The position numbers and the translations under genes are program-made. A DNA stretch of 59,695 bases. It comes from Chiloscyllium plagiosum. Its lineage: Eukaryota. The stretch is taken from NCBI RefSeq assembly GCF_004010195.1, contig NC_057718.1:105811461-105871155 (forward strand). Reading direction: 5' to 3'. Below the pieces are notes generated by a model, which was not told the origin of the DNA, searched no databases, and worked only from the letters and a program-made list of their open reading frames with translations. Every line of letters begins with the position of its first letter. Positions within the stretch are counted from its first letter, which is position 1. Shown here piece after piece: positions 4,288 through 59,695 of this stretch.

Positions 4288-4797
4288 ATGATTTGGAGAT
4301 GCTAGTGTTGGATCCACATGCACACATATAAGTTTGTGAGGTGAATTTGTACTTGCAGAAATACATTTTATTTTGCTCAAAAACTGCATGAATCCATGTA
4401 AGATTCTGTAAATACGTTTTTAGATTAGAATCAGTCTGAACATTGCGGCACAGACAGCCTCACACAGGGAAACTCACGCTTTCAATACATTTTCTGGGCC
4501 GACATTACACCAATTGTTAAAGTTCACTTGAGAATGTAACTTTTAAAAAACGTTTTGCGATTTACATATGAAAGAACTGAAATTGACATGATCATTCTAA
4601 AAGATGAGACACTTAACAAACAATCCAGGTCTTTTTCAATATATAATTTCAGTTACATCACATTGTAAACTTATGCTATAAATTCTGTGTCTTACAATTT
4701 TATTCTCCACAACCACCTGATGGAGCGGTGCTCCGAAAGCTAGTGCTGCCAATTAAACCTGTTGGACTATAACCTGGTGTTGCGTGATTTTTAACTT
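4288..4797 (+). mobile_element. PLE family A 3' region with a short inverted terminal piece, nested in CR1
   Basis: Homologous to 6590-7240 and 23270-24640; ends with a degenerate hammerhead motif (4714-4745) and aaacctgttggactataacctgg. Confidence 0.75.
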
Positions 4798-6244
4798 CAG
4801 TACGAACAACAACTCTCTACCACCACCTCGTGGCTTTACAAGATGTGCAAGGTAGAATTTGGCAAGTGATTATGCTCATTTCTGATATCAGGATGTCATT
4901 CTCCATGTATATTAAAACCACCTGGCTTTGCCAGCAGCAAAGTAAATTCCATGGTTAGGATGGTAAATGAAGAGCATGACATCAGGATGATATCTTTAAG
5001 TGGATACAGACGAGAGTAACACATAATGTCTTGCATCTTGCACAGTACCAGTTGCCCAGCTTTGATGACTACTTCAAGAATTGGTCAGAATTTTACAAAG
5101 AATCTAACATAGTTTCTATATCCCACAGTCTTTAACATGAGCAGTTTATGATGAATACTGTGCAAATCTGAAACTGTATTAACTGTGCACATATCCAAAA
5201 GAATAGCATTGTCAGCATACCTTATAATAACATTGCCCTCATAGAGGCTCACAGGTTCAAATCTAGGTATAGGTAAATTCAATGAAATAAGGTGAGCACT
5301 AACCGATTCCCCTGTACTATATAGGACCGGTAGCTGAGAAATTTGTATTCCAGTTCAATGGAATCAAGTACAAGGCTCACAGACCATAGGATCTTTAATT
5401 TTTCATTACAATGGATTATGTTGCTTGGAATGAAACAAACATTTGCATCCTAAAGATTACAAATCAGAAGAAAATCTGACTGCTGAGCCACGTAAAATGG
5501 CTTTCTCCCTTTCGCTATATAAGTGTACCATGTGTCAGGAAAATAAAAAGACATACGTAAACAACTATTGTGGCTAAACATCTGTCAGTGCATTCAAGCT
5601 CTCAGCACAATATAAAATTGGAAAAATAATTTACAATAAGTTGATAATTAGTGTTCAGGTGCCAGTTTTCATTACCTCGGTTACATAAAAGAACAGGCAG
5701 GAAACCATAATACCATGTGATTTGTGAATGATGTTTATCATCATAAACTATTGACTCATAACCATACTGCAGTAAATTGATTGTCAATTAATTATCCTTA
5801 AAACAGTCTCACCAGGGACACAAAATAATTTCTCATCGATGCAATGATTTCAGAAACAGGCAAACACAAAGCCCAAAGAAGAACAATCTACTTCAGAGAC
5901 ATATTCTCCTACTTGGAGGTGACACAAGATCATTGAGAGTATCAACACCTGACTAGTACCAGCAAAATAAGACAAAGAACTCAAAGCTTCAGGATTATAG
6001 GATATGATCGCTGGCCTTAGCCAAAACTATAACATACTGACACGTATACACAATGAAGAAAGTAGGATAAGAAAATGTGAAACTAATTTCTAATTTTTAG
6101 GCTAAACAACTACTCATAAGCAGAGCCATGACAGAAAATACTGTCAATGCTGAGACGGGTAAGAAGCTTCTCATGGATATCGATTTGGGTCAGGGACATT
6201 TCCACCCAAGTCTGAAAGTTTCAGGTGGGCACATAATCTGGACT

Positions 6245-6570
6245 GTTATCTGAGTGCAATACAGAGTGATCCAGTCAATCCCACTTCCCACTCTGTCTGA
6301 ACAGCGCTGCAAGTTTATTATGTTCTTGTGCTCATCCAATTTCCTTTTGAAATCAATCATGGTTTCAGCTTCCATCCTGGTGAAAAGTGTGTTCCAAATC
6401 ACTTCCATGTGCAAGGATTCTTTCTCATATTCCCCCTGCAACTCATGTCCTCTATTTTAAATCAATGTCCTCTAGTCCTTGTACTAATGGAAAGCTTTCT
6501 CAGCTTCCACTTATAAACACAACGTTCAATACTTCTATCAAATCTCCCTTTCGTTTCCTTTGCTCCAAAA
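6245..6570 (-). mobile_element. Old CR1 3' fragment
   Basis: ORF 6190..6441 WNTL...EAETMIDFKRKLDEH. Confidence 0.75.
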
Positions 6571-6589
6571 TATAACTTCACATTAAAGG

Positions 6590-7240
6590 CAGTCTTGAGG
6601 ACAGGCAACAATGCAAAGTGGCCAAACAGAGGCTGATAGCCTCTGTACCCATGGGACGGCCTCAACCTGGACCTTGGGTTCATGTCACACTACAGGTGAC
6701 CCCACTGCACCACACACTCTCTCACACAGACATTCCTACAGACCCACAGGCCCACACAGATCCTCTCTCATACACTCACACATACACCCCCTCACAGACT
6801 AATACTCCATTACACACTCTCACATACAAATTTGTGTGGTGAATTTGTACTTACAGAATTACATTTTATTTTGCTCAAAAACTCCATAAATCCACATAAA
6901 ATTCTGTAAATCCCATTTTAGAAATAGAATCGGTCTGATCTAACATTGGGACACAGACAGACTTTAACTTCACACCTTCAATGCATTATCTGAGCTGAGA
7001 TGGCACCTATTGGTAAAATCCATCTTGAGAATGTAACTTTAAAAAAGGTCTGGGATTTACACATGGAGGAACCAAAACTAACATGATCATTCTACCGAAA
7101 CTAACACTAAAAGATGATTTGGAGATGCTGGTGTTGAACTGGGCTACAAAGTTAAAAATCATACAACACAAGGTTATAATCCAACAGGTTTATTTGAAAG
7201 CACTAGCTTTCTGAGCGCTGCTCCTTCATCAGGTGGTTGT
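6590..7240 (+). mobile_element. PLE family A: ORF C-terminus, CA-rich UTR, plus an inverted terminal repeat (7113-7240, minus)
   Basis: AKQRLIA...DLGFMSHY-like end; the inverted piece carries a hammerhead motif at 7201-7235. Confidence 0.75.
7201..7235 (-). ncRNA. Minimal hammerhead ribozyme motif (PLE family A)
   Basis: Minus strand CAC-CUGAUGA-A-GGAGC-AGC-GCUCA-GAAAG-CUA-GUG; one stem II mismatch. Confidence 0.55.
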
Positions 7241-9104
7241 CAATTTTCTTTTCAAGAAAACGTTTCATACAATATTTGACTGCATAATTCATAGTCCAAA
7301 CATTTATTAACCACTAAATTAAATAATATGCAGTTTTTATAAAACTGCACAAAATTTGTGTTTGACTCATACCAGTTGCTTCTCATGTTTCCCACACCTA
7401 CAGGAATACAAGAGAAAGTTTTTGTCACTGGCTAATTGTTGAGAGAGTGACTTGTTAAAAAAAGCTTTTAAGCACTGAAATCTGATCTAAAAACAGCAGT
7501 TTGCCACTTGCCAAGTACACTATCTGAAAAGTTGAATGCCAAGATCCTTGATTATTAGACAAAGCTTCACTGATGACTCCATTGTGTTACACAGTGCTGC
7601 TACCAGACAGATTAAAAGGTTCTTAGGCTGTCAAGTTATCTGATCTCAATCACTGGGGAAACAGGACTTTACAATTGGCTTCAGTATCCTGGGCAGCAAA
7701 TGAGAACGTCTTCCAGCTGTTGTTCCCTCCTGCCACTCCAACACTTTGTACACTTAAACATCTGGGAACATTATATGCAAGGCAGACACTTAGTGATGCT
7801 TGACTCCAGAAAAAACAACAAACGCTGACACTTCTAGACCATACAGATACTTCTGGTCCAGCAAACCGGTTAATACCATTTATAATCATAAATCCTAATG
7901 TTGGAAACTCAACGGTCATGGTGCACACAGCATACAAATAATTATAAGAAATCTGACTGATATGTACTTAGTAATGACAAGTAAACTAATTACAATTTGT
8001 AAAAATTAATTTCCATTATAAACACAACATTTAAAAGTATTTAAAGTCTCCCCATCCAATTTAAAACATTGAGTCTTTCTGCTGATAGGAATGTTAGAAT
8101 AATCAAAAGCAGTTGACAGTTTAGAACCTAATTACCTCAAATGTTAGCATGTTTTGGCAGTTCCATAATAAGCAATCACAGCCAATTTTTGTAGGAAGCA
8201 AAGTGACAAATTTTCAAAGCCCAGCTTTCTAGCTATTTTCAAATAATCACCAAATTCTTCTTGCAGCATTTTTATTCAATCTATCATAAGCTCCAGTAAG
8301 CAATATCAGGCTCCAATAGGCATTGTTGAATTGTCTGCCATTGCTAAGATAAAATACAATCTACAGCTCAAATAATTCTATCTAGGGATTAACATGTCTG
8401 AGGTTCAGCCAGAGATTGTGCGCATGGATCTTGCATTTCATCATTTCCCCATGGCATAACAACTTTTTCTTACTGTTTTCCATTTATTCTTCGATGCAGG
8501 CTCAAGAAAGCATAGTCTCACTGCTGCATTCAGTTCATCTCATTGAGCAGCCACCCAATAATCCAGCTGACCTGTTGGTTTTGGTCTTCCAGAGTCACTT
8601 AATTCTGAATCCTGTAATTACACTGTACAATAAATAAATGCTGCCCCCTAGTTGCCAACTGGTAACATAAACCAAAGGTGTTCTAGCCATTTAGAGTTAT
8701 TGAGTCATATGGCAAATAATAATTGAATTTTGTCATGAGATTGGCAGAGCCTGACTTACCTACCTTTATGAAAACAGCCAAACATTTCTCATTCAAAATA
8801 TTGATATCAGTGACAATTGAAAGATGATCCAGGGCTCAATCTGAAAATGATGACTTAACTCAATTCCCACCCCACTCAGGATTTCCCTACTTTACAATCT
8901 TTATTTGAACACTTCTAAAGTACCAGTTCGGGAATCCAGGTTACCTTGTCTTTTTGCCAAACTGTTATCTGGCTTTAGATCTGCTTTCTACAAGTCCATA
9001 ACTGAAAATGCGTGTGGCGTCTATCTTACTGTATTGTGTGTCTGTGTGTCTGCATTTATGTGTTCATTTGTCCACTGGATTTGCATCTTTTAACCACATC
9101 AGTA

Positions 9105-9540
9105 GTATCTAGAACTAGGAGACAGAGTCTAAAATTTAGGCCAGACTGTTCAGGACATGTGATAGGAAGCACTTGCACACACAAAGGGTGTTAGCGATTT
9201 GGAACTATTTTTGAGATTTGTAGCTCAGGTTGATGATAAGTCTGTAAGTTTGCTCGCTGAGCTGGAAGATTTGCTTTCAGATGTTTCATCACCATATTAG
9301 GTAACATCATCAGTGAGCGTCTCTGGTGAAGCGCTGGTGGTATGTCCTGCCTCCCTATCTTCCACAAATGGCAAATGATACTACTTGTTAATTTTAAATC
9401 TAAGATAGATAAACCTTTTGTTAAAGTATTAAAGGATATGAGTTTACGGCAGATATATGGAGTTGAACCACATACCATCCACGATTTCACTGAACGGTGG
9501 AATAGGCCCTAAGCAGCTGTATGGCCTCCTCCTGTTCCTA
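9105..9540 (+). mobile_element. Old CR1 3' end interrupted by a PLE family B remnant (~9200-9350, minus)
   Basis: tctagaactaggagacagagtctaaaa and the tail ggcctcctcctgttccta flank a segment homologous to 34020-34165. Confidence 0.7.
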
Positions 9541-10152: not shown

Positions 10153-11088
10153 GATTGGTGGAGCAGTGGGTGGTGAAAGGTTAGAGGGAGGTAATGGCGC
10201 GTCTGGAGCCAGAGCGGGTTCGGCTTCTTCTACTGCAAAAAATACGGAGAGATGGCATTGAGGGTGAGTTGGGGGTTAGGAATTGGCTGGCTGGAAGAAG
10301 ACAGAGGGTAGTACTTGATGGTAAAGGTTCATCTTGGAGTGCAGTTACTAGCGGTGTTCCGCAAGGATCTGTTTTGGGACCATTGCTGTTTGTCATTTTT
10401 ATAAATGACCTGGAAGAGGGGTTAGAAGGTTGGGTGAGCAAGTTTACGGATGATACGAAAGTCGGAGGAGTTGCTGACAGTGAGGAAGCATGTGGCAGGT
10501 TACAGAAGGATATAGAGAAGCTGCAGAGCTGGGCAGAAAGGTGGCAAATGGAATTCAATGTAGCTAAATGTGAGGTGATTCACTTTGGGAAGAATAACAA
10601 AAAGATGGGGTACTGGGCTAATGGTCGGATACTTGGTAGTGTGGATGAGCAGATGTTGCCTGGTATGGTAGGAAGATCGTATGAGGAAAGGCTGAGGCAC
10701 TTGGGGCTGTTTTCATTGGAGAAAAGAAGGTTTAGGGGTGATTTGATAGAGGTGTACAAGATGATTAGGGGTTTAGATAGGGTTGACCATGAGAACCTTT
10801 TTCCATGTATGGAGTCAGCTATTAGGAGTAGGCATAGCTTTAAATTAAGGGGTGGTAGGTATAGGACAGATGTTAGGGGTAGATTCTTTACTCAGCGAGT
10901 CGTGAGTTCATGGAATACCCTGCCTGTAGCAGTGGTGGACTCTCCCTCTTTATGGGCATTTAAACGGGCATTGGATAGGCATATGGAGGATAGTGGGCTA
11001 GTGTAGGTTAGGTGGGCTTGGATCGGCGCAACATCGAGGGCCAAAGGGCCTGTACTGCGCTGTATTTTTCTATGTTCTATGTTCTATG
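10153..11088 (+). mobile_element. Internally deleted CR1 LINE with a 270-aa open frame and (ttctatg)n tail
   Basis: ORF 10194..11006 [21 protein letters not shown]...KFTDDTK; terminal repeat ttctatgttctatgttctatg. Confidence 0.93.
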
Positions 11089-12200: not shown

Positions 12201-12279
12201 AAAAAACCATAAAACTCATCTTGTCAATGTCGCATATGAATGGGAGTGGTGCCACTGTAACGTTCCCATTTAAAAAAAT

Positions 12280-14358
12280 TATCCATGTATATGTTGGCAG
12301 GTAAAGGGATGGCTGGAAATGGGAAGCCTTCAAAATGAGATAACGAGTGTCCAGAGACAGTATATTCCTGTTAAGGAGAAAGGAAAGGCTGGTAGGTGTG
12401 GAGAATGCTAGATGATGAGAGAAATTAAGGTTTTTGTTAAGAACAACAAGGAAGCATATGTCAGGTACCAAGTGAATCCTTAGAAGAGTACAAGGCAGTA
12501 GGAATATACATAAGAGGGAAATCAGGGGGGCAAATGGGAGATATAAGATAGCTTTGGCATATAGAATTATGGAGAATCCAAAGGTATTTTATAAATACAA
12601 TAAGAACAAAAGGATAACTAGGGAGAGAATAGGACTCGTCAAAGATTAGCAGCCGAAGTGTGGAATTGCAGGAGATGAGGGAGATACTAAACGAGTATTT
12701 TGCATCAGAGATTACTGTGGAGAAGGATATGGAAGTCACAGAATATGAGGAAATAGATGGCGACATCTTGAAAAAATGTCCATATTATAGACAGATTGGG
12801 CTGAACAGGGCTTAATGAATTCCAAAATATAGAAAAAAAACTTGTCATTCTCAAAAAAAATCAAGTGTGGCATAAGATTATCATGACAAGAATCTGCACC
12901 CATTTAATCAATAAATATAGATTTCTATAGTGCTTTGCTCAACCTCCAGACAATCCAAAGTGTTTTACAGCCAATTCTGATGCTGGATGTCTCAAAACGC
13001 ATAAAAAAGGTGGATAAATCACCAGGACCTGATCAGGTGTATCTCAGAATTCCGTGGGAAGCTAGCGAAATGATTGCTGGGCCCCTTGCTGAGATATTTG
13101 TATCATCGATAGTCACAGGTGAGGTGCCAGAAGACTGGAGGTTGACTAGAAATGTGCCATGATTTAAGAAAAAGTGGTAAGGAAAAGCCAGGGAACCAGA
13201 GACCAGTGAGCCTGACATCGGTGGTGGTCAAATTGTTGGAGGGAATCCTGAGGGACAGGATTTACATGTATTTGGAAAGGCAAGGAGTGATTAAGGATAG
13301 TCAACATGGTTTTATGTGTGGGAAATCATGTCTCACAAACTTAACTGAGTTTTTGAAGAAGTAACAAAGAGGACTGATGAAGGCAGAGCGGTGGACATGA
13401 TCTATCAGTAAGGCATTCGACAAGGTTCCTCATGGGAGACTGATTAGCAAGGTTAGATCTCATGGAATACAGGGAGAACTAGCCATTTGGATACAGAATT
13501 GGCTCAAAGGTAGAAGACAGAGGGTAGTGGTGGAGGGTTGTTTTTCAGAATGGGGGCCTGTGATCAGTGGTGTGCCACAAGGATCGGTGCAGGGTCCACT
13601 GCTTTTCATCATTTATATAAACGATTTGGATGTGAACATTTAAGAGGTATAGTTAGTAAATTTGCAGATAACACCAAAATTGTAGGTGTAGTGGACAGCG
13701 AACAAGGTTACCTCAGAGTACAACAGGATCTTGATCAAATGGGCCAATGGGCTGAGGCATGGCAGCTAGAGTTTAATTTAACTGTGAGGTGCTGTATTTT
13801 GGAAACACAAATCAGGGCAGAACTTATACACTTAATAGTAAGATCCTGGGGAGTGTTGCTGAACAAACAGCCCTTGGAGTACAGGTTCATAGTTCCTTGA
13901 AAGTGGAGTCATAGGTATATAGGATAGTGAAGGCAATGCTTGGTATGCTTTCCTTTATTGGTCAGAGCATTGAGTACAGGAGTTGTAGCTGTACAGGACA
14001 TTGGTGAGGCCACTTTTGGAATATTGTGTACAATTCTGGTCTCCTTCCCAGCGGAAGGAAGGATGTTGTGAAACTTGAAAGGGTTCAAAAAAGATTTACA
14101 AGGATGTTGCCAGGGTAGGAGGGCTTGAGCTTTAGGAAGAGACTGAATAGGCGGGGCTATTTTCCATGGAATATCAGAGGCTAAGGTGTGACTTTATAGG
14201 TGGTTTATAAAATCATGAGAGGCATGGATAAGGTAAATAGACAAGGTCTTTTCCCTGGATTGGAGGAGTCCAGAACTAGAGGGCATAAGTCTAGGATGAG
14301 AGGGGAAAGAATTAAAAAGGACCCAAGGGGCAACTTTTTCATGCAAAGAGTGGTGCAC
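12280..14358 (+). mobile_element. CR1 LINE ORF2 (linker and RT), frameshifted, lacking its 3' tail
   Basis: ORFs 12935, 13152, 13538, 14200: [34 protein letters not shown]. Confidence 0.93.
12792..12980 (+). repeat. Inserted copy of the 189-bp duplication, within CR1 ORF2
   Basis: Interrupts CR1 between gtccatattataga and tgctggatgtctcaaaacg. Confidence 0.95.
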
Positions 14359-14361
14359 TTA

Positions 14362-14820
14362 GGGACTGGTGGATATTACCCCTTATGTAAGTTTATGTTA
14401 CCCGTTATCAAAATCGCAACTTCCGTTCCTCTCTTGCCCCCCTTTCTAACCTTCCTATAGCATTTGTATCCTGGAACATTAAGCTGCCAGTCCTGTCCAT
14501 CCCTGAGCCATGTCTCTGTAATTGCTAAGATATCCCAGTCCCATGTTCTTGACCGTGCCCTGAGTTCATCTGCCGTCCCTGTTGGGCCTCTTGCATTGAA
14601 ATAAATGCAGTTTAATTTATCAGTCCTACGTTGTTCTCTGCTCTGTTCCTGCCTGCACTGACTGTTCGACTCGCTCCTTTTCCAAACTGTACCAGTCTCC
14701 AACTGATTGGTTTCCTCACTATCTTCATGGGTCACCACCACCCTCCCTCCCGGCCCCACCCCCCACCTTACCAATTTAAATCCTCCCGAGCAGCTCCAGC
14801 AAATCTCCCTACCTATATAT
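14362..14820 (-). mobile_element. CR1 5' ORF2 (APE endonuclease) fragment, inverted relative to the adjacent RT segment
   Basis: ORF 14376..14774 CIYFNARG...DILAITETWLRDGQDWQLNVPGY. Confidence 0.9.
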
Positions 14821-15959: not shown

Positions 15960-18015
15960 GCAATTATAATGCAATTAAGCAAGAATTAGGATGCAGAGTA
16001 TGGGTTATCAAAAAGCAGGGGATGGGGACAATCAAAATGTAGATCTGGTTTAAGGAACAGATATTGTGTGTCCTTGATAGCTATGTCCCTGTCAGGCAGG
16101 GAGGAAGTGATAAGGTAAGGGAACCGTGGTTTACTACAGAAATTGCATCTCTTGTTAAGCGGAAGAAGGAGGCTTATGTGTTGATGAGACAAGAGGATTC
16201 AGATGAAGCGATGGAGAGTTACAGATTAGGTAGGAAGGATTTAAAGAGAGAGTTAAGAAGAGCAAAGAGAGGACATGAGCAGCTTTTAGCAGGTAGAATA
16301 AAGGAAAATCCTAAAGCTTTCTATAGGTATGTGAGGAATAAAAGGATGATTAGGTAAGAATAGGGCCAGTCAAAAACAGAAGTGGGAAGTTGAGTGTGGA
16401 CCCTGTAGAGATTGGAGAAGTGCTAAACGAACATTTCTCATCCATTTTCACTCAGGAAAAGCAGAATATTGTAGAGGAGAAGAATGAGATATGAGACATT
16501 AGACTAGAAAGGATCGAGGTTAGTTACAAACAGGTGTTATCAATTCTCGAAGGACTGAAAGTAGACAAATCCCCTGGGCTGGATGAGATTTACCTGAGGA
16601 AGCTAGGGAGGAGCTAGCAGAGCCTTTGGCTTTGATATTAGAGTCGTCAATGTCTACAGATTTAGTACCTGAGGACTGGAGGATTGCAAATGTTTTGTTC
16701 TTGTTCAAGAAGGGCAGCAGAGATGACCCAGATAATTATAGACCAGTGAGCCTTACATCTGTTGTAGGAAAGATTTTGGAAAGGATTACAAGACATAGGA
16801 TTTATAATCACCTAGCAAGCAACAATTTGATTTCAGATAGTCAACATGGTTTCATCAAAGGCAGGTCGTGTCTCACAAACCTCTGAGTGTTTTGAGAAGG
16901 TGACCAAGCATGTAGATGAGGGTAGGGCAGTTGACGTGGTGTACATGGACCTCAGTAAAGCCTTTGATAAGGTTCCACATGGTAGGCTATTGGAGAAAAT
17001 GCAGAGGCATGGAATTGGGGGTGATTTAGCAGTTTGGATTAGAAATTGGCTTTCTGAAAGAAGGCAGCGAGTGGTGGTTGATGGAAAATATTCAGCATGG
17101 AGTCCGGATACTACTGGGGTGCCACAAGGATCTGTTTTGGGACCACTGCTGTTTGTCATTTTTATAAATTACTTAGACGCAAGCATAGGTGGATAGGTTA
17201 GTAAGTTTGCAGACGACACTAAAGTCAGTGGAGTAGTGGACAGTATGGAAGAATGTTGCAGGTTAAGGAGGGCTTGGATAAACTGCAGGATTGGGCTGAG
17301 AGGTGGCAAATGGAGTTCAATGCAGCTAAATGTGAGATGATTCACTTTGGCAAGAGTAACAGGAAGACAGAGTACTGGGTCAATGGAAAAATTCTTAGTA
17401 GTGTGAATGTGTGAATGTCCATGTACATAGATTCCTGAAAGTTGCCACCCAGGTTGATAGTGCTGCTAAGAAGGCATACGGTGTGTTAGGTTTCATAGGT
17501 AGAAGGATTGAGTTGTGGAGCCGCAATGTCATGCTGCAACTATACAAAATGCTAGTGCAGCCACACTTGGAACATTGTGTACAGTTCTGGTCGCCCCATT
17601 ACAGGAAAGATGTGGAAGCATTGGAAAAGGGGCAGAGGAGATTTACCAGAATGTTGCCTGGTCTGGAGGGAAGATCTTATGAGGAAAGGCTGACAGACTT
17701 GGGTCTGTCCTCATTGGAAAGAAGAAGGCTAAGAGGGGATTTGATAGAGACATACAAGATGATCAGAGGATTAGATAGCGCAGACAGTGAAAGTCTTTTT
17801 CCTAGGCTGATGATGTCAGCTTGTACTAGGGGGCATAATTACAAATTGAGGGGTGATAGATTTAAGATAGATGTCAGAGGCAGGTTCTTTACTCAGAGTG
17901 GTAAGGGCGTGGAATGCCCTACCTGCCAATGTAGTTAATTCAGCCACATTAGGGAGATTTAAACAATCCTTGGATAAGCACATGGATGATGATGGGATAC
18001 TGTAGGGGGGGTGAT
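15960..18015 (+). mobile_element. CR1 LINE ~2 kb, RT domain, degenerate
   Basis: ORFs 16064, 16626, 16846, 17411: [43 protein letters not shown]. Confidence 0.94.
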
Positions 18016-18049
18016 CTGATCTCAGACTCAACTCCACAGTCATGCTTGA

Positions 18050-23269: not shown

Positions 23270-23765
23270 AGGAGCCACTGTTGGACTGGGGTGGACAAAT
23301 TAAAAATCACACAACACCAAGTTATAATCCAACAGGTTTATTTGGAAGTACAAGCTTTTGGAACGCTATTCCTTCAAAAGGTAGCTGTGGAGCAGGACCA
23401 TAAGATACAGAATTTACAGCAAAAGATTACAGTGTCATGCAACTGAAATGATATATTAAACAAACATAGCTTGCTGTTAAGTCTCCCATCTTTTAGAATG
23501 AGTTACAGGTTTCGGTTCATTAATATGTAAATCTCAGAATTTAAGTCACATTCTCGAGATAACTTAAGGTTTATAGAAAAAGGTGACATCTCAGCTCAGA
23601 TAATGCATTAAAGGTGTGAGGTTAGAGTCTGTCTGTATCCCAATCTTGAGTCAGACTGGTTCTATTTCCAAAGTAGGAATTCATAAAATGGATTGAGTGC
23701 CTGCGGATTGTTTGCTTTTTGAGCAAAATAGAATGTGTCTGCAAATACAAATTCACCCCATAGCC

Positions 23766-23812
<47 letters not shown>

Positions 23813-24140
23813 TGCATGTAAATATGTGTGTGTGTGTGAGTGTGTGCAAGTGAATGTGTGTTTGCATGTGCAAGTGCTTGGTAGTGTGTGTAGGTGTGAC
23901 AGAGTATAAGCCTGAGAGAGGGTGCGTGTGTGGTTGAGAGTGAGGGGGATGTATGTGTGTTGTATGAGAGAGGGTATGTGTGTCTGTATGTATCTGAAAG
24001 TGTGGGGGAGAAAGTGTGTGTTTTGGCGGGGGGGGGGGGGGAGGAGGGGGAGGGGAAGAGAAAAAAATAGTGTAGTGGTGTTACCTGTCGGGTAACATGA
24101 ACCCAAGGTCCCGGTTGAGGCCATCCTCACGGGTACCTGA
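23270..24140 (-). mobile_element. PLE family A 3' region with internal (GT)n/(GA)n and G-rich tract
   Basis: Reverse complement of 4310-4797 and 6640-7100; microsatellite at 23766-23870. Confidence 0.78.
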
Positions 24141-24640
24141 TTAAGGAGCAGTGCTCCAAAAGTCTGTACTTCCAGATAGACCTGTTGGGACTACATGAGA
24201 TGAAAGCCAGCATTTATTTCCCATTCCTAATTGCCCAAAGTCAATCACATTGCTGTGATTCCGGAGTCTGTGTAGGCCAGACACAGAAGAGATGACAGAT
24301 TTCAATCCTGGACTGGGGTGAACAAAGTTAAAGATCACACACCATGTTATAGACAATGTTATAGATATTTATATATTAATGAATCGAAATCTGCAACCCC
24401 ATTCTAAATGATTAAAGACTTAATGGCAATCTAGGTTTGTTCAATACATCGCATCAGTTGTATGACACTTTGATCTTTTACTATAAATTCTGTGCCCCTT
24501 GATCCTGCCCCACTAGTTACCTGACGAAGGAGCAACGTTCCAAAAGCTTGTACTTCCAAATAATCCTGTTGGGACTATAACATGGGGTTGTGTGATCTTT
24601 AACTTTGCCCATCCCAGTCCAACACTGGCACCTCTACTTC
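24141..24640 (+). mobile_element. PLE family A terminal repeats (inverted relative to 23270-24140) with a SINE fragment at ~24195-24303
   Basis: ctgacgaaggagcaacgttccaaaagcttgtacttccaaataatcctgttgggactataac...cccagtccaacactggcacctc. Confidence 0.7.
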
Positions 24641-27279: not shown

Positions 27280-27960
27280 ACATAAACGTAGAAAAAAAAG
27301 GAGTAGGCTATTCAGCATTTCAAGCTTAGTCCACCAATCTTTATGATTATGGCTGATCAGTCAACTCTATTCTGAAGAAGGGTCACTGAACCTGAAACAT
27401 TAATTCTGTTTTCTCTCCACAGTTGTTGCCAGACCTGCTTAGTTTATCCAGCAATTTCTGATTTTGTTTCTGATTTCCAGCACTTGCAGTTTTGTTTTTG
27501 TTTGGTTTAGTGCCCTTTTCCTGCTTTCTTCCCTTATCATCTGAACTCATTAGACACAAGCATTAGATTTAACTCCAACCTGAAAATATTTAACAGTTTA
27601 GCATTTTCTGTGGCAGAGAGCTTAGTTCTCTCTGGGTGAAATAATTTCTCCTCATCTCAGGCCTAAATGGCCTACCCCACATCATCAGACTGTGACCCCT
27701 GGTTCTAGCCTCCCCAGTCATCAGGAACATGCAACCTGCATTTATCCCATCTTGTCCTGTTAGAATTTCATAGCTTTCTAGGAGATCCCCCTTCATTCTT
27801 CTAAACTCCTGTGAATATAGTACTAACCAATTGTCTCTATTCATATGTCAGTCCTGCCATCCCAGAAATCATTTTAGTAAACCTTCGCTGCATTCCCTCT
27901 ATAGAACATCTTTCCACTAATATGGAGACCAAAACTGCAACAACCCAGGTGTGGTCACAC
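27280..27960 (-). mobile_element. Old CR1 3' end interrupted by a PLE family C remnant (27369-27505, plus)
   Basis: ORFs 27590 and 27837; insert begins ttctgaagaagggtcactgaacctgaaac. Confidence 0.75.
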
Positions 27961-33659: not shown

Positions 33660-34168
33660 GGATGAAAGTTGAAGGTTCATTTTCAGGTGTTCCATCACCA
33701 TACCAGATAAGATCATCAGTTAGCCTCCTGTGATCATCAAAGAGCCACAAAAAAGACATGGCCCACTCTCACTAGTATCCTTACATACAGATGAGGAAGG
33801 ACACCACTTTGACTGGGACAACACATCCATCCAAGGACAAGCCAAACAGAGACACACATGAGAATTCCTAGAAGCATGGCTTTCCAACCGGAACTCTATC
33901 AACAAACACATCAACTTGGATCCCATTTACCTCTCTCTGAGAAAAAGAACAGCAAATGACATTTCCACAGGAAATGGCATCACCAACCCAAGGAATCCTA
34001 AACACATGAATAGAAAGCAGGTCACGAACACCAGTGCTTCACAGGAGACTCACTGAAGAGGTTACCTAGTATGGTGACGAAATGTCTTAAAATGAACCTT
34101 CCAGCCCAGTGAGCAAACTTACATCCAGAACCTCAACCCGAGCTACAAATTTTCTCAAAACTCACAAG
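33660..34168 (+). mobile_element. PLE family B: endonuclease C-terminus and terminal repeat, 5' inverted piece, 10-bp TSD
   Basis: Translates RATKRHGPLSLVSLHTDEEGHHFDWDNTSI...EFLEAW..N.NSINKH; tattgataat at 33650-33659 and 34169-34178. Confidence 0.85.
34050..34088 (+). ncRNA. Minimal hammerhead ribozyme motif (PLE family B)
   Basis: CUGAAGA-G-GUUACC-UAGUAU-GGUGAC-GAAAU-GUC. Confidence 0.55.
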
Positions 34169-39655: not shown

Positions 39656-40707
39656 TAGATTTTTTTTTAAAAGGTATATCCCAGTGCAATGTGAAATGCT
39701 ACAATGATATATCCAGAAAATATTTTACAAAATTCTAAACCCAAGGCAGTTTCAGAAACCTGGCTGCAAGGTGATCTGGATTGGGACCTGAATTTTGAAG
39801 GATACAGAACAACCTGCATAAGGGTTATATTAGACCTGCCATTGTGCAATGAAATAGAATAATTATCTCAGTGAAAACATTCCTCGGTAGCAGTGACCAT
39901 AACTGAATTTTATTTGACGAAGAGAGGAGTGCATCTGACAGTACTTTCTAAATGAAGGCGATTATGAGGATGTGAAAGCAGAGGTGGATGAAGTGAATTG
40001 GGAAATTAATTTAAAGAATAGATCAACAGAGGGGCAGCACTAGGCATTTAGTAGGATCGCCAGAAGATTCTGTAATTTATTTATTCTGTGCAAGAAAAAT
40101 TCCAAGAGACAGACCCACAATTCATGGCTAACCATAAATGTTAAGGATAATATCAAACATGTACAAAAAGCACAATTATAAAGACAGATATAAGGTCAAA
40201 AGATTAGACAGAAATTTTAAGAAGCTGAGAATAATCAAAGCCTGAAATATAAAAAATAGGTATGAGATTTTCTATAAATATTTGAAAAAGAAAAGTTAAC
40301 AAAATGAGCATTGGTCCTATAAAAAATGACTGAAGAATTAATGATGGAAAATAAGGAAATTGCAAACAAATTGAACAAGTACTTTGCATCGGTCTTCACA
40401 ATAAAGAACACAAGTAACATTTCAGAAGCAACAGTAAATCAGGCAATGGAACAAAGGGACGAACTCAGGAAAATACAATCACCAGAGAAGTGTAACTGAG
40501 TAAGCCATTGGGGCTGTGGATTGAGAAGTGTCCAGGCCCTGATGGACGTCAGCCTAGTTCAAAGAAATTGCTGGGGACACAGTTTTTAATTTTCCACAAC
40601 TCCCTTGATTTGGAGATGGTCACAATAGATCGGAAGATACCAAAAGTAACTTCTTCCATCAGAACAGGAGGAAGAAAGCAGGAAAGAAAATGTCAGGTAT
40701 CTTAATA

Positions 40708-40924
40708 AAAGCAAATTACTGCGAATGCTGGAATCTGAAACCAAAAGAGAAAATGCTGGAAAATCTCAGCAGGTCTGGCAGCATCTGTAAGAAGAGAAAA
40801 GAGCTGACGTTTCGAGTCAAACTGACCCTTTGTCAAAGCTTTTTTTAGCCTAGTATAAATACCTCCCTATTTCTCCCTTTTTTTTTAGCTTTGAGAAAGG
40901 GTCAGTTAGACTCGAAATGTCAGC
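40708..40924. mobile_element. 217-bp PLE family C mini-element with two back-to-back hammerhead motifs, 14-bp TSD
   Basis: caggtatcttaata at 40694-40707 and 40925-40938; 40802-40840 and 40887-40924 are inverted copies. Confidence 0.85.
40802..40840 (-). ncRNA. Minimal hammerhead ribozyme motif, U3-A8 variant (PLE family C)
   Basis: Minus strand AGCU-UUGACAA-A-GGGUC-AGUUU-GACUC-GAAAC-GUC-AGCU. Confidence 0.6.
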
Positions 40925-41656
40925 CAGGTATCTTAATATTGATCACAGAGAAAATATTAATAACTATTAAAGAAGTTGTAATCAGGGGCTTAGAAAATTT
41001 CAAGATAATCAGATAGACTCAACATGGTTTTGTGAAAGGACAGTCACGTTTGACCAATGCATTTGGAGTTCTTTGAGGTAACACATGCTATGAATAAAGG
41101 GGAATTGGCGAATGTGCTGTACTTAGATTTCCAGAAGGCATTTAATAAAGTGCCACACCAAAGGTTATTGCGGAAATAAAATCTCACGGTGTAGGGAGTC
41201 ACATATTGACCTGGATAGAAGATTGAATATTTGATAGGAGGCAGAGAGCGGGCCTTAATTAATCTTTTTCCAAGTTGATAAGGCAATGATTGTTGTACCA
41301 CATGGATCAGTACCAGGATCTCAACAATACACAATTTATATAAATCGCTTGAATGAAAGGACAGAGACATGGTTGCCAAATCTGCCATGACACAAAACTA
41401 GGTAGCAAAGTAAGTTGTGCAGAAGACACAAGAAACGTACAAAAATATATAAAAAGATTAAATGAATGGGGAAAGATGTAACAAATGGTGTACAATGTGG
41501 AAAAATGTAAAACTGTCAATTTTGAAAAAAAAATTCTTTAAATGGTGAGAGATTGCAAAACTGAGATGCAGAGGAATCTGGGCATTCTCGTGCATGAATC
41601 ACATAAGGGTAGTATGCAGATACATCAAACAACTGGGGAATTCCACAGAATGTAAT

Positions 41657-47177: not shown

Positions 47178-47302
47178 GATGAGAAAGTGAGGACTGCAGA
47201 TGCTGGAGATCAGAGCTGAAAATGTGTCGCTGGAAAAGCGCAGCAGGTCAGGCAGCATCCAAGGAACAGGAGAATCGACGTTTCGGGCATAAGCCCTTCT
47301 TC
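47178..47302 (-). mobile_element. 125-bp PLE family D terminal insertion in CR1, 6-bp TSD
   Basis: aggttc at 47172-47177 and 47303-47308; removing it restores CR1 gcatttgataaggttccccatgg (AFDKVPH). Confidence 0.88.
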
Positions 47303-47306
47303 AGGT
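47273..47306 (-). ncRNA. Minimal hammerhead ribozyme motif (PLE family D)
   Basis: Minus strand CUGAAGA-A-GGGC-UUAU-GCCC-GAAAC-GUC; core and stem II intact, helix I weak; activity untested. Confidence 0.65.
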
Positions 47307-51865: not shown

Positions 51866-51919
51866 CTCCTGGTTAACTATTAGATTTAACACGTGACTCA
51901 GCAACGACCACAAGATGCA

Positions 51920-53425
51920 TTAGAAAAATTAAATGGGACTGAAAGTGGACAAAGTCCCGGGATCTGATGGCCTATGGAGTGTTGAAGGATTTGGCTACAG
52001 AAACAGTTGATATACCTTTCAAAATTCTAATAATTCTGCAATGGTGTCTACAGATTGAAAGGTTACAAATATAACGCCACTGTTTAACAAAGATGGAAGA
52101 GAGAAAGCAAGGAGCTATTGACACCATTAGTAGGGAAAATACTGGAATCTATTATTTAGGAAAGAGGGAGTGCAATGGAGATTCACCAGACTGATTTCTG
52201 GGATGGTGGGTCAGTCCTACAAGGAGACATTGAGGAGAATGGGCCTGTATTCCCTGGAATTTAGTAGAATGATGGGTAATTTGTTTGGAAACATACAAAA
52301 CTTTTAAAGGAATAGACAGAGAAGTTACAGAAAAGATGGTTGCCCTAGACTGATGTCTGTGTTGTGGGAACACAATAAAAGACAAACTATTTAGGACAGT
52401 GATGAGAAGGAATTTGTTCATTAAGAAAGTGATGAATTCTCTACACCAGAGGCAATGGGACCTCAATGATAAAACAGGTTCCAAGACAAACTTCAAGACA
52501 GATTTCTAGTTACTAACAACATCAAAACATATGGGAGGAGTGACTGAATATGGTATTGAAAGATGATGAGTCTGATGCTGAGAGATGATCAGCTATATTA
52601 TAGAGTCATAGAGATGTACAGCATGGAAACAGACCCTTCGGTCCAACCTGTCCATGCCGACCAGATATCCCAACCCAATTTAGTCCCACCTGCCAGCACC
52701 CGTCCCATATCCCTCCAAACCCTTCCTATATATTCTAGAATGAAACAGCAGGACTGAGGGACTGAATGGCCTACTCCTCCTGCTATATTCTTAGGTTACA
52801 TGATACATTGAACATTGATACATTGAAGTTATGTAATGAATCATTATGCCCGTTTCCACCTGCATGAGTTATTGGGTGCATTTACATTAAATCATTAATA
52901 TATACAGAATTTTTTATTTATACATATTAGTGTCATACAGCACTGAAACAGCCCTTCAGTCTAAACAGTCCATAATCCCAAACTAAACTAGTCCCAATTT
53001 CCAGCGCTTGGCCCATTTCCCTCCAAACATTTTTTATTCACGTACGGACCTAAATTCCTTTTAAACGTTATAACTGGACCTGCATCCACTTCCTCTGGAA
53101 GTTCATTCCACACACAAACTACTGTGTAAAAAAATTACCTCATGTCTTTTTTTTAAAACTTTCTCCTCTCACCGTAAAAGTATGCCCCCTAGTCTTGAAA
53201 TCTCCCACCCTAGGGAAAAACACCTTATCTATACCTCCATGATTTAATAAACTTCTATAAGGTCACCCCTCAACCACCTACGCTCCAATGGAAAATGTCC
53301 CAGACGATCTAGCGTCTCCTTGCAATCAAACCCTCCATTCCCAACACCTTGGTAAATCATTTCTGAATCCTCTCCAACTTAATAATCCTTCCTATGTCAG
53401 GGTGACCAGAAATGGACAGGGTACT
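51920..53425. mobile_element. Old CR1 (plus 51920-52790) with a young tail (52600-52730, minus), then a CR1 3' end (52927-53425, minus)
   Basis: aaagtcccgggatctgatgg (KVPGSDG); agagtcatagagatgtacagc tail; homology to 43345-43680. Confidence 0.8.
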
Positions 53426-53449
53426 CTAGAACCTACGGTGGACCTATTC

Positions 53450-54585
53450 CGTCACACAACACACCCAATGGCCTCCTTCTTCAAAGACCACAATTTCTCC
53501 TCCCACGTGGTCAATAAAGCCCTCCAGCACATCTCATCCACTACCCGCATCTCCTCCCTCGAACTCCACCCTTCCAACTGCAACAAGGACAGACCATCCA
53601 CCAGTCCTCACCTTCCACCCCACCAACTTCCGAACACATCATATTATCCTCCACCATTTCCGCCACCTATAAACAGACCTCACTACCCCTAACTGCGTTC
53701 CGTAAAGACCATTCCTTCCGCAACTCTCTTGTCAGGTCCATGCCCCCACCAACTCACTCTCCCCTCCCGGTATCTTCCCCTGCCACCGCAACAATTGCAA
53801 AACCTGCACCCATCTGTCAGAGATTTACCTGCATTTCCACACACGTCATTTACTGTATCGGTTGTTCTCAATGCAGTTTCCTCTACATTGGGGAGACAGG
53901 ACTCCTACTTGCGTAACACTTCAGAGAACATCTGCGGGACACATGCACACAGAAACCCCACTGCCCTGTGGCTGAACACTTTAACTTACACCCCCCACTT
54001 CCCCAAGGACATGCAGGTCCTGGGCCTCCTCCATTGTCAAACCCTTACCACCGGCTGCTTGGAGGAAGAATGCATCAGCTTCCGTCTTGGGACAATCCAA
54101 CCACATGGGATCAATGTTGATTTCACCAGTTTCCTCATTTCCCCTCCCCCCACCTTATCCCAGATCCAACCTTCTAACTTGGCACCGCCCTCTTGACCAG
54201 TCCTCCTTCCCATCTATCCGCTCCACCTTCCTCTCCCACCCATCATTTCCTATGGTGATGTCATTTCCTGTTCTTTTTCTCTGGGAGTGATAAATGGGAT
54301 CCAAATCAATGAGTTTGTTGATAGAGTTCTGGTTGGAATGCCATGCTTCTAGAAGTGACATCACCATAGAAAACAATGTCACCACAGGAAACGACATCGC
54401 CAAACCAAGGAAACCCAAACATATCAATAGAAAACGGGCTACATCACCAATGCTTCATTCGGAGGCTCATTGAAGATGTTACCTAGTATGGTGATGAAAC
54501 ATCTGAAAATGAACCTTCCAGCTCAGTGAGCAAACCAACATCCAGAACCTCAACCTGAGCTATAAACCTTCTCAAAATACGCTAA
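53450..54585. mobile_element. PLE family D-type fragment (53450-54243, plus) followed by PLE family B pieces in both orientations (54243-54585)
   Basis: ORF 53729 LLHCQTLTTGCLEEECISFRLGTIQPHGIN; ORF 54155 LEAWHSNQNSINK; degenerate hammerhead at 54468-54506. Confidence 0.82.
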
Positions 54586-55079
54586 TATAAATAAATCTCC
54601 AGCCCCACTAACACAATGTGACCTAAAGTACTGACTTCGCATATGATTGCAAGGAAAATAGACTTGTTAAATGATAGCTCCTTTCCTAAAAGGTCTTCAC
54701 AAAGAGAATTTGGGTAGTCTAAATGTTGTTCTAGAAGCTGTGCACCCACAACCAAATCAGAGGAAATGGCACATGATCAGTTTTCTAGATTTGGATCTAT
54801 ATTTGACTTGTCAGTAAATCATTGCATGAGTGCAGAAAATATACAGAAGAGAAATAGGCCATTCTTTCCAAACAAGCCATGCTGATGAATAAGCTCTGTT
54901 TGCACTGCTCTAATCTTTTCTCATTTAGATCAATCATATTCCTTTATTCCCTACTCCCTCATATGCTTTTCTGATTTCTACCTAAACTTGCTCCAACCAA
55001 TGTTTCATATCCTCTGCTGAACATGTTTCTTCAGAGTACTTTTTGAATTTCTTAGTGCCCAACTTATACTAATAGACTA

Positions 55080-55905
55080 GGTGAAAGTGAGGACTGCAGA
55101 TGCTGCAGATCAGAGTCAAAAAGTGTGGCGCTGGAAAAGCATAGCAAGTCAGGCAGCATCTGAGGAGCAGGAGAATCGACAATTCTGATGAAGGGCTAAT
55201 GCCTGAATTGTGGCAGGCAAGGGGTCTGAGAGATAATGGGGGAGGGGAGGTGAGGAAACTGGTGAAATTGACATTGATGCAGTGTGGTTGGAGGGTCCCA
55301 AAGCGAAAGATGAGGCATCCTTCCTCCAGACATCGAGTGGCTTGGATTTGGCAGTGGAGGAGAACCAGGATTTGCATGTCCTTGGCGAAGTGGGAGGGGA
55401 AGTTGAAGTGGTCAGCCACAGGGCGGATGGGGTTGTTTGATGCTTGTCGCCCAAAGATGTTCCCTGAAACATTCCATGAGTTGGCATCCTGTCTCCCCAA
55501 TATACAGGAGACCACATTGAGAGCAACGGACACAGTAGATGGGGTGATTGGATGTGCAGGAAAATCTCTGCTGGATGTGAAAAGATCCTTTGGGGCCTTG
55601 AATGGAGGTGAGAGGGGAGGTACGGGCGCAGGGTTTACACCTCTTGCAGTGGCAGGGGAAGGGGAAAGGTGCCAGGAGTGGAGGGTGGGTTGGTGGGGGG
55701 TGTGGACCTAATTAGGGAATCGCGGAGGGAATGGTCTCTGCAGAATGCTGATAGGGGTGGGGAGAGAAGTATATCTCTGGTGGTGGGGTCTGATTGAAGA
55801 TGGCGGAATTGACGAAAGATAATGCACCGTATCCAGAGATTAGCTCCTGGTCCTCAGATACTGCTAACCCGCTGTGCTTTACCAGCGCCACACTTTTTGA
55901 CTCTT
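55080..55905 (-). mobile_element. PLE family D with GIY-YIG region and inverted terminal pieces
   Basis: Minus strand IYCVRCSQCGLLYIGETG and VADHFN...LEEGCLIFRFGTLQPH; 55100-55165 is inverted relative to 55850-55905. Confidence 0.85.
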
Positions 55906-55924
55906 CTATTGATAGACTCCAAGA

Positions 55925-56878: not shown

Positions 56879-56879
56879 A

Positions 56880-58440
56880 ATCAATCAACTTGGTATCATC
56901 TTGTAAATCCTCACCCTACACCCTCTTAAGAGCCCCAACATCAGTTTATAATATGGTGACCAGAACTATGTGCAGTACTCTAAGTGGCATCCAACCAAAC
57001 TGCAAGATTTTACGTAACTTTCCCATTTTAGAACTTTATCTCTAGAAATAAAGTTTGGATCTCCCTTTTTCTTTAAGGCCTTACTCACCCATGCTACATC
57101 TTTTAAAATGGCCTGTGTATATTTACTCAAAACCCTTTTGTCTTATACTCAAGACTTAAACCTTGCAAGTGATAAGTCACCTCCTTGTTCAACCTACAAA
57201 AACATACTAGCTCATTTACCTGCTTTGAACTTAATTTGCCAATTTGTCTATTTGTAAATTTAACAACCTCTTATAATCTGAAGTTCTCAGCATAAACTAT
57301 TTTCTGCCCCTCCCTAAATCTAGGTGTCATCATGAATTTAGAAATTGTTTTCAATTCCAAAGTCTAAATCATTATTGCTGAAAAAGTGTTGCTGGAAAAG
57401 CGCAGCAGGTCAGGCAGCATCCAAGGAGCAGGAGAATCGACGTTTCGGGCATGAGCCCTTCTTCAGTAATCTGAAGAAGGGCTCATGCCCAAAATGTTGA
57501 TTCTCCTGCTCCTTAGATGCTGCCTGACCTGCTGCGCTTTTCCAGCAACACATTTGCAGCTCTGATCTCCAGCATCTGCAGTCCTCACTTTCTCCTCTAA
57601 ATCATTATTGCAAATTATAAACAGCAATGATACTTCCCACCATCTTGTGATCTGAATAACCCCATTTGACTCCTACTCTCTGCCTTAAATTCAGCCAGAA
57701 ATCCATTCACTTACTTGTTTGCCAACTCCACATTTTCAGAACTTATTCATTAGTCTATCATGGTCTATCTTAGCAAATGCCTAGTCCAGATAAATTGCGC
57801 TTGCTGCATTCCTGTTATCTACTCTCACTTATCTCCTAAAATTTAATACAATTAAACAAGATTTTCCCTTCTGAAATCCATGCTGACTACTCATTGTATT
57901 ATTTGTCGTCTCTAGACATTCTTCTGTTCTTTTGCTTTGTCGGGTTACTATTATTTTCCCTTACCAATGATAAAATGACTGGTCTGTAAAGCCCTTAACA
58001 CATTCTATCGCTATTCTTAAATATCAGAACTGCAGCAGCTATCTTCCATTCCTCTAGCACTACACTTTTTCTCATAACTAATTATTCAGGACTCCATATT
58101 ACACTTATTAGCAAAATCGCAGTGTATGAGATAAAAGGAAGTGTGTGGGTGCAGTATTGGTCAAGGGGTAGAAAACAGAGTTATGGTAAGGGCTATTTTT
58201 CAAACTGCAGTGAGGTGTACAGTGGAGTTTCCCTATAGATCTGCACTAGGACCACTGCTATCTTTGATACATATCAATGACTTGGAATTGGAAACACAGG
58301 ATGTATATGCATATTGTAAATGCATATTGTACAGTGTAAAACTCTAAGGAAGAACATAAAACAGTTAAAGTCACTCATGGAATAGGTAGTCATAAGGCAG
58401 ATGTAAATCAATGGGGAAGATAGTAAAGTATAACTGGTTT
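56880..58440. mobile_element. Old CR1 fragments (minus 56880-58070, plus 58090-58440)
   Basis: ggtgaccagaactatgtgcagtactc; ORF 58141 SALGPLLSLIHINDL. Confidence 0.72.
57379..57595. mobile_element. 217-bp palindromic PLE family D mini-element, 16-bp TSD
   Basis: tctaaatcattattgc at 57363-57378 and 57596-57611; ~90-bp inverted arms around a taat loop (57467-57470). Confidence 0.9.
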
Positions 58441-58544
58441 CAATACAACTAGATGCAAACCCAGTACTTCATATGATGCGATTAAGAGTTAGCATATAAA
58501 TGATGAAGAGGGGGGAACCAAAGGCTATACTTGTAAGAGCCAGT

Positions 58545-58730
58545 AGAATGGAATATCTACAATGTGAAAGCAGTCCATTCAGTGCAACAGGTCCACAAAG
58601 CCCCTCCCAAGAGCATCCCACCCAGACCCATCCTCTCCCTGTAACCCTGCATTTCCTATGGCTAATCCACCTAGCCTGCACATCCCCATACACTATGGGC
58701 AATTTAGCATGGCCAATCCACCTAACCTTA
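58545..58730 (-). mobile_element. HE1 SINE 3' half
   Basis: ggcaatttagcatggccaatccacctaacct; homologous to 15168-15360. Confidence 0.8.
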
Positions 58731-58867
58731 CAGCTAACCACAATCATTTTCATCACAGATAGCTCTAAAATCTTAAAACAATGGAGTAACTGCAAAGCAA
58801 ATGGCTCCCTCTTTACAAAGTTTCCATCAACTCTCTATAGAAAGAGCACTCTGTAGTACTATTACAG

Positions 58868-59695
58868 ATTCTGGATCAGTGGTGCTGGAAGAGCACAGCA
58901 ATTCAGGCAGCATCCGAGGACAGGCATTTTAAAAGTTGCATTCTCGGGTTAGCTGTTAACAATGGTGATAGCTGGACAATATGTTGAAGGTTCTGGATCA
59001 GTGGTGCTGGAAGAGCACAGCAGTTCAGGCAGCATCCAAGGAGCTTTGAAATCGACGTTTCCCGCAAAAGCCCTTCATCAGGAATAAAGGCAGAGAGCCT
59101 GAAGCGTGGAGAGATATGCTTGAGGAGGGTGGGGGTGGGGAGAAAGTAGCATAGAGTACAATAGGTGAGTGGGGGAGGAGATGAAGATGATAGGTCAGGG
59201 AGGAGAGGGTTGAGTGGATAGTTGGAAAAGGAGCTAGGCAGGTCGGACAAGTCCGGATCGGTCAAGGGGAGAGTGCGGTCTGGAAGTTTGAAACTAGGAT
59301 GAGGTGGGGGAAGGGGAAATGAGGAAGCTGTTGAAGTCCACATTGATGCCCTGGGGTTGAAGTGTTCCGAGGCGGAAGATGAGGCGTTCTTCCTCCAGGC
59401 GTCTGGTGGTGAGGAAGTGGCGGTGAAGGAGGCCCAGGACCTCCATGTCCTCGGCAGAGTGGGAGGGGGAGTTGAAATGTTGGGCCTTCCACATCCATCA
59501 AAGTTTTACCTGCAAATCCACTAACATCATTTATTGTATCCGTTGCTCCCGAGGCGGTCTCCTCTACATTGGGGAGACTGGACACCTCCTAGCAGAGCGC
59601 TTTAGGGAACATCTCCGAGACACCCGCACCAATCAACCAAACCGCCCCGTGGCACAACATTTCAACTCCCCCTCCCACTCTACCGAGGACATGGA
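58868..59695 (-). mobile_element. PLE family D-type 3' end (minus to ~59484) with a duplicated terminus and an inverted GIY-YIG segment (plus, 59485-end)
   Basis: ORF 59294 AQHFNSPSHSAEDMEVLGLLH...LEEERLIFRLGTLQPQGIN; plus strand IIYCIRCSRGGLLYIGETG; ttctggatcagtggtgctggaagagcacagc at 58869 and 58991. Confidence 0.9.

Follow-up and report, generated by a model that had tools for sequence, protein, structure and literature searches.

Hammerhead ribozyme relics of Penelope-like elements in a Chiloscyllium plagiosum locus, and a putative capped RNA start at the front edge of the ribozyme

A stretch of 59,695 nucleotides from the shark Chiloscyllium plagiosum (contig NC_057718.1, positions 105,811,461 to 105,871,155; hereafter the window) contains 16 sites with short recurring motifs, which a sequence-only reading had interpreted as minimal type I hammerhead ribozymes from the pseudo-long terminal repeats (pLTRs) of Penelope-like elements (PLEs), grouped into families A to D. 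The locus raises two questions, namely what these motifs are and why the short copies that carry them begin where they do. The first interpretation is supported, with the motifs present here as relics, by their linkage to PLE open reading frames (ORFs) and by features that fit the published consensus; Cervera 2014 (PMC4209133) already describes this kind of motif, together with its extra nucleotide, its palindrome and a dimer model. As the answer to the second question, we consider it likely that the sites are mostly decayed terminal-repeat hammerheads and that the short copies of families A, C and D were made from capped, uncut RNA starting at the front edge of the ribozyme. Positions are numbered from the C3 nucleotide of the CUGA box (position 0), and the predicted cut lies at +27/+28 in family D, +28/+29 in A, +33/+34 in B, and +29/+30 or +30/+31 in C.

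A family copy is present at all 16 sites listed by the earlier reading, but the core, stem II and the stem III palindrome are all intact in only three of them (47304, 57466 and 40836, each on the minus strand), and among these stem I is additionally kept only at 40836. The boxes are kept and the palindrome is lost by a CpG-type change at 9313, 27372 and 34053, and the boxes are broken at 24521, 57471, 55185, 24137, 54470 and 23380. A search with a type I descriptor and genome-wide family patterns, as had been suggested, bore out the identification. The strict, sequence-blind descriptor (CUGANGA, 0-2 extra nucleotides, stem II of at least 4 bp, GAAA, NN and UH) matched five window sites, whereas 200 shuffles gave 0.025 matches on average and never more than 2. 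In a genome sample of 1.10 Mb it matched 118 times, and each of five controls yielded 0-2 matches; half of this sample is the dense end of contig C1, with 138 matches per Mb compared to 78 per Mb elsewhere. Extrapolation from 78 per Mb would give about 280,000 motifs genome-wide. Exact family patterns gave approximately 112,000 matches in the genome of 3.56 Gb (87,125 for D, 18,415 for A, 4,976 for B, 649 for C and 805 for subfamily C3) and 0 for each reversed control. The shared architecture of boxes and a paired stem II, found without regard to sequence, holds at the family level, only the five window sites passing the strict form; sites 40836 and 40891 depart from CUGANGA and read UUGANAA. 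One extra nucleotide occurs in 117 of the 118 descriptor matches and G10.1 in 116, and the loopless stem III palindrome, described previously as ACGU or AGCU, is Watson-Crick paired in 82 of them, with most of the rest reading CA or TG; its majority form is ACGU or AGCU in all subfamilies (11 distinct out of 12, since the A3 pattern fell onto A2). An Rfam scan returned no match to a hammerhead model at E values up to 5.

The link to PLEs comes from longer copies, in which each of A, B, C and D lies directly 3' of a PLE ORF end. Translations of family B contain a GIY-YIG domain without the cysteine linker, fragments of families C and D show the cysteine linker before this domain, and for A the linker was not seen. 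In family A, a reverse transcriptase (RT) ORF is located between two same-strand hammerheads 2,517 nt apart; this element (locus L111, 1974-4491, minus strand) has both repeats, and its ORF is frameshifted and lacks the 3' part. A similar D1 unit, internally deleted, occupies L120:3653-4429. The Pfam matches to RVT_1 (E 0.0044) and GIY-YIG (E 0.014) are both below the cut-off. Family B looks Poseidon-type, and families A, C and D look Neptune-type, labels that we partly presume, A being placed by what we take to be its C-terminal motif; few complete ORFs were readable. Four dissimilar families had been proposed; however, the block that follows the ribozyme is common to C and D, and thus the families represent three lineages rather than four. 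The repeat runs into the ORF start in A (ATG near +123) and in D1 (ATG at +164). No ORF was seen upstream of subfamily C3 among the six loci fetched, and this subfamily may be non-autonomous. In addition, a short frame that begins at a conserved ATG (+46 in D, about +50 in C) lies between the cut site and the main ORF, and the family C ATG is preceded by a splice-acceptor-like stretch (pyrimidines followed by CAG).

Stems I, II and III change in step across subfamilies, in agreement with the earlier observation that stem II stays paired while its sequence differs by family. Compensatory changes are found in stem I (UCA/UGA versus CCA/UGG in B, AGUU/AACU versus AGCU/AGCU in C) and in stem III (ACGU versus AGCU). 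Helix I comprises 3 bp in A and B and 4 bp in C and D3, the D3 stem being perfect, and in D1 and D2 three of its four positions are paired, with a U.U mismatch; the short helix I attributed previously to A, B and C alone is therefore confirmed in these families and extends to D. The core is also subject to paired change: in subfamily C3, the C3:G8 nucleotide pair is replaced by U3:A8 in 99 of 100 among the matches listed (of 805), and the remaining match has C3 with A8. Because compensatory changes affect both the stems and the core, and conservation is strong, the hammerhead fold is, as judged by comparison of the copies, under selection. The U3-A8 variant occurs in Schistosoma according to PMC4209133; in the window it is found at 40836 (minus) and 40891 (plus). 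The sequence-only reading missed this variant, the kinship of C and D, and the information held in the 5' ends of the copies.

The 5' ends of D and A copies were anchored on the block downstream of the ribozyme, which avoids selecting for the ribozyme itself, and copies adjoining N runs were dropped (17 of 239 in D, 1 of 95 in A). Among 222 ends of family D, 73 lie at -10..-1 with a peak at -4/-5, 36 at 0..+9, 7 at -59..-20 and 3 at +26..+30; among 94 ends of family A, 19 lie at -10..-2 versus 9 at -59..-11, with a peak at -8..-5. The corresponding analysis of C was swamped by D cross-hits, and only rows at -30..+36 were used; after removal of the cross-hits, 23 ends lie at -6..0 with a peak at -4..0. 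At the peak stands an A preceded by a pyrimidine (tcAttc, tcAgtt, ccAc), located at -4 in C and D, where it is the first base of stem I, and at -8 in A. About 30 nt upstream of it, A and C3 have TATAAAT and C1/C2 have TATAAA or ATAAAT. The 3' ends form two clusters about 33 nt apart (+89 and +123 in D2, +85-89 and +122 in A).

These positions bear on the possibility that the ribozyme cuts RNA in vivo and that the cut product is the usual linear template, which is favored by the strong conservation and the compensatory changes as signs of selection on the fold, and by the weak in vitro cleavage of dimers of other PLE motifs (PMC4209133). A search among D copies revealed no excess of junctions at the cleavage site. 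Besides the 3 ends out of 222 noted above, D2 patterns gave about 840 junctions at the cleavage site genome-wide (1,352 matches, 62 of 100 true among the matches listed), against about 665 at a control offset of +30, 2 nt past the cut (1,623 matches, 41 of 100 true among the matches listed), and about 9,700 at -4 (10,227 matches, about 5 of 100 among the matches listed being longer copies), the three patterns differing somewhat in strictness. The RNA evidence consists of raw poly(A) reads of one run, X19, from 'organism C', which may differ from the window species; a second run, X20, yielded 0 reads, and none of the listed records holding the sequence is registered as RNA. At a family A locus (L022:1541-1561), untemplated poly(A) follows +57 in 376 reads and +60 in 458 reads, 12-15 nt 3' of A(A/T)TAAA and 5' of a GU-rich stretch. 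Family A RNA is thus polyadenylated about 30 nt beyond the cleavage site, and across the cut site its sense depth ranges from 345 to approximately 1,390, read ends not piling up there. A small number of loci may be the source of these reads, as may host transcripts that end in a copy. In the same run, both strands contribute D reads, and none of the loose ends listed shows poly(A). Given the lack of a start excess and the reads crossing the site, we regard cut RNA as a most improbable usual linear template; circles that were cut and religated would leave no cleavage-site junction and so would remain compatible with the junction data.

The base preceding the junctions provides a further indication of the RNA end. 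Against a background expectation of 27%, G precedes 56 of 100 D junctions at -4 versus 12 of 100 at -3 among the matches listed (Fisher p 4e-11), and 35 of 57 at -4 once 43 rows are dropped in which a longer copy or an arm, inverted or tandem, accounts for the junction. Among the matches listed for A, G precedes 63 of 77 junctions (23 longer copies dropped) and 28 of 42 arm-free ones, and among those listed for C, 37 of 79 (21 dropped). A script count on fetched DNA gave 15 G and 6 A of 21 at -4 and 3 G of 20 at -3 in D, and 4 G of 4 at -8 in A, and the family A copy of the window that starts at 7240 shows the extra G. Among the loose ends of X1 (69) and X2 (49), the majority letter beside -4 is also G, at low agreement and hence as a weak fit. 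The 119 loose ends of X19 at -4 were considered as junctions and rejected, their majority line being D1 upstream sequence. An untemplated G at the 5' ends of full-length L1 and SVA copies has been attributed to the copied cap (PMC3287187). The extra G, together with a TATA-like box some 30 nt before the initiator A, leads us to infer, on sequence grounds, a capped polymerase II start at the front edge of the ribozyme. That three families carry this G at a constant initiator position speaks for a template that was capped, sense and uncut; an earlier proposal for PLEs is that of an antisense template (PMC3846280).

Joining at the DNA level could likewise fix the junction near -4, either because the endonuclease prefers ATT or because the copy shares microhomology with its target or with the second arm. 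Cutting at ATT is described for the anole protein (PMC11167929), D has ATT at -4..-2, and CTTC is common to many -3 junctions and the inverted arm. In addition, three 5' junctions of D2 lie at another CATT site at -75, which is perhaps a minor start site. However, no peak is seen at an identical ATTC at +29, the pile-ups of C (AGTT, AGCT) and A (ACAACCAC) occur where ATT is missing, and microhomology leaves the added G unexplained in the arm-free junctions of D and A counted above, so that we consider this explanation improbable. A second explanation, which we also regard as unlikely, is that RT, copying a longer RNA, halts where the folded ribozyme ends on its 5' side (at stem I or a bound protein) and adds an untemplated C. 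The peak of C and D coincides exactly with the outer pair of stem I, and the start-site evidence for a capped start is itself drawn from sequence. On the other hand, RT stalls are expected on entering a helix and not once it is unwound, the peak of A lies 5 nt upstream of its 3-bp stem I and fits a TATA+30 spacing, and family B carries the ribozyme yet shows no pile-up in -31..-12.

Several observations weigh against a capped start at the front edge. RT can append an untemplated C at any RNA end, so that the G is better evidence for a discrete RNA end than for a cap. The G counts other than the script count were made by hand among the matches listed, which come from the start of the largest contigs, and in the script count A has G at -4 likewise in 5 of 7. 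The D2 matches at -3 are as numerous as those at -4 (10,452 versus 10,227), many of them with inverted-arm microhomology, and a part of the D ends at -8..-12 belong to sequence upstream of the ribozyme in another subfamily and are not junctions. The box about 30 nt upstream in D is only weakly TATA-like (TTTATCT), and B1 shows no start pile-up in -31..-12 despite its TATAAAT, about 90 of 100 copies among those listed passing -31. Read starts and ends in X19 pile up for neither A nor D, in a library type that cannot show 5' ends, and the -8 junction of family A is absent among the loose ends listed for these reads. In nearest-neighbour folding of six copies, the catalytic dimer was never the lowest-energy form, and stem II swaps were formed instead. 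Finally, in Drosophila Penelope the start lies 46 nt upstream of an intron of 75 nt, the end of which meets helix I (PMC4209133 for the latter), and thus a start at the ribozyme edge is not universal.

With a capped start at the front edge as the likely reading, the life of these copies may be outlined as follows. In elements that carry each of A-D at the 3' end of an RT/GIY-YIG unit and, in A and D1, a repeat reaching the ORF start, polymerase II would start at the initiator A at -4 in C and D and at -8 in A. The protein of the anole Poseidon element PAc begins complementary DNA (cDNA) internally on uncut RNA and helps the hammerhead to cut (Frangieh et al., 2024, PMC11167929); by analogy, cDNA would be begun inside the RNA at about +85-90 or +122, would reach the cap and copy it as one extra G, and the 95-130-bp product would insert, often as a head-to-head pair. 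A lone ribozyme is predicted to cut rarely because stem III requires a second copy as its partner (PMC4209133; reviewed in PMC6765202). A cut would shed a 32-37-nt capped leader ahead of the ORF, which may turn translation off or, given a second cut at the 3' repeat, make circularisation possible. If the start at the front edge is true, the ribozyme heads the RNA and its cut would remove the cap; the role of PLE hammerheads has been stated to be unclear (PMC8557442).

PAc resembles the shark families in its two internal cDNA start sites, its 30-40-bp tail, a hammerhead near the ORF start, uncut RNA as the main template, and the lack of RNA-seq ends at the cleavage site (PMC11167929). It differs in that its ORF starts at stem II and is cut 26 nt inside, whereas the ORFs of A and D1 start approximately 95-135 nt after the cut, and the 5' end of PAc is not mapped in the accessible part of that report. 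Copies of L1 and SVA that reach the RNA start similarly have one extra 5' G (PMC3287187), but they belong to a different retroelement class, and the G described here marks internally initiated copies of 95-130 bp.

More tentatively, and with considerable doubt, the pLTR may be likened to a retroviral U3-R-U5 arrangement, in which the 95-130-bp copies would be inserted 'strong-stop' cDNAs and the hammerhead would gain a defined job. The stretch from the family A cap (-8) to the poly(A) site (+57/+60) would then form a 65-70-nt terminal redundancy containing the hammerhead. Both cDNA start sites would lie beyond the poly(A) site, so that in a normal transcript they would be confined to the 5' end, and a long copy would depend on either a repeat-to-repeat jump or a circle cut and religated by a dimer of the 5' and 3' hammerheads.

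Compared to the minimal PLE hammerheads of PMC4209133, the motifs described here share the conserved core, the extra nucleotide between 9 and 10.1, the G10.1-C11.1 pair, the palindromic 15.2-16.2 without loop III, the short helix I, and the occurrence mostly as dispersed truncated copies and inverted pairs. They differ in a helix II of 4-5 bp in A, C and D and in abundance, the approximately 112,000 exact matches comparing with about 4,000 in coelacanth and about 9,000 in Xenopus by the descriptor used there. The accessible part of PMC4209133 names no shark and does not discuss the start site or the extra G. TATA and initiator elements have been noted in a rotifer pLTR, without a link to the ribozyme or to junctions in the part of that source consulted (PMC3846280). 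Literature searches listed no report of a cap-derived G in vertebrate PLEs, of a start mapped in them, or of PLE hammerheads in sharks; such data may be present in subscription papers, in Repbase/Dfam or in a supplement of PMC4209133. Non-coding, hammerhead-bearing non-LTR retrozymes derived from PLEs are described in one chondrichthyan (Li et al., 2026, 10.64898/2026.07.22.740005). These are head-to-tail tandem units, whereas the window copies are single or head to head; assignment of the window copies to non-LTR retrozymes was rejected as no head-to-tail units occur in the window. Elsewhere in the genome, at L115:1361-1567, two C1 hammerheads lie head to tail, 177 nt apart, as a retrozyme-like dimer. 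The copy number of these families seeds the genome with ribozyme remnants and, in family A, with poly(A) signals, and thousands of family A copies could end host transcripts early.

Within the window, family A is represented by five copies. A 3' fragment at 4315..4797 (plus) comprises 3' untranslated region (UTR) and pLTR, and its hammerhead at 4717 is broken by a 3-nt core deletion. The short copy at 7115..7241 (minus) begins at the predicted start (-8, at 7240) and reaches the tail; it has the extra G at 7241, C3 at 7232 and a broken closing pair of stem II. The long fragment at 23279..24126, whose hammerhead had been reported at about 23350, lies on the minus strand and contains the ORF end (GLNRDLGF), a CA-rich 3' UTR and a decayed hammerhead with C3 near 23380; an inverted short arm at 24134..24193 (plus), with a decayed core at 24137, is placed head to head with it. 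The pLTR fragment at 24367..24634 (plus) has C3 at 24521 and has lost G12. Equivalents of the family A poly(A) signal are found downstream of 4717, 7232 and 24521.

Family B includes a short copy at 9210..9342 (minus; C3 9313), with intact boxes and stem II and a lost palindrome, a 3' fragment with the GIY-YIG ORF end at 33743..34164 (plus; C3 34053), which has lost the palindrome and is accompanied by an inverted arm at 33671-33733, and a pLTR fragment at 54379..54584 (plus), whose site 54470 is broken by a change of C3 to U with G8 kept. The family C1 short copy at 27370..27503 (plus) starts at -2 (C3 27372) and has intact boxes, a damaged stem II and no palindrome. The subfamily C3 short copy at 40705..40840 (minus) starts at -4 and is fully intact, with U3 at 40836, the U3:A8 core, stems I and II, and ACGU. 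A second C3 arm at 40847..40924 (plus) is arranged head to head with it and has TATAAAT at 40854, 33 nt 5' of the predicted start at 40887; the pair (40705..40924) is flanked by a 14-bp target duplication (40694-40707, 40925-40938).

In family D, the D2 short copy at 47178..47305 (minus), beside a LINE (long interspersed nuclear element) remnant, has an intact core (C3 47304) and has lost the 5' strand of stem I. The rearranged copy at 55079..55204 consists of a minus-strand part (55079-55185) and an inverted plus-strand piece (55185-55204) with a broken core, and a decayed Neptune-type ORF end lies upstream of it at 55238-55700 (minus). The D2 head-to-head pair at 57378..57595 combines a minus-strand arm starting at -4 with an intact core at 57466 (57378-57470) and a decayed plus-strand arm (57471-57595), and has a 15-bp target duplication (57363-57377, 57596-57610). 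The D1 3' fragment at 58988..59473 (minus; C3 59081) contains the GIY-YIG ORF end (RLEEERLIFRLGTLQPQGINVDF) and a broken stem II. Further decayed Neptune-type ORF ends occur at 53250-54224 and 44490-45434 (both plus), and a hammerhead was not found after them.

The window had been described as part of a shark gene, a description that gained no support, as the 145 longest of 231 non-repeat frames gave no Pfam match above the cut-off. Repeats cover about half of the window, and ten decayed frames gave only LINE-type Pfam matches. Many CR1/L2-like LINE remnants are present, for example at 10185-11006, 13027-14368, 16831-18802, 25467-26764 and 38563-39724, and the window ends 9,011 bases short of the end of contig C9.

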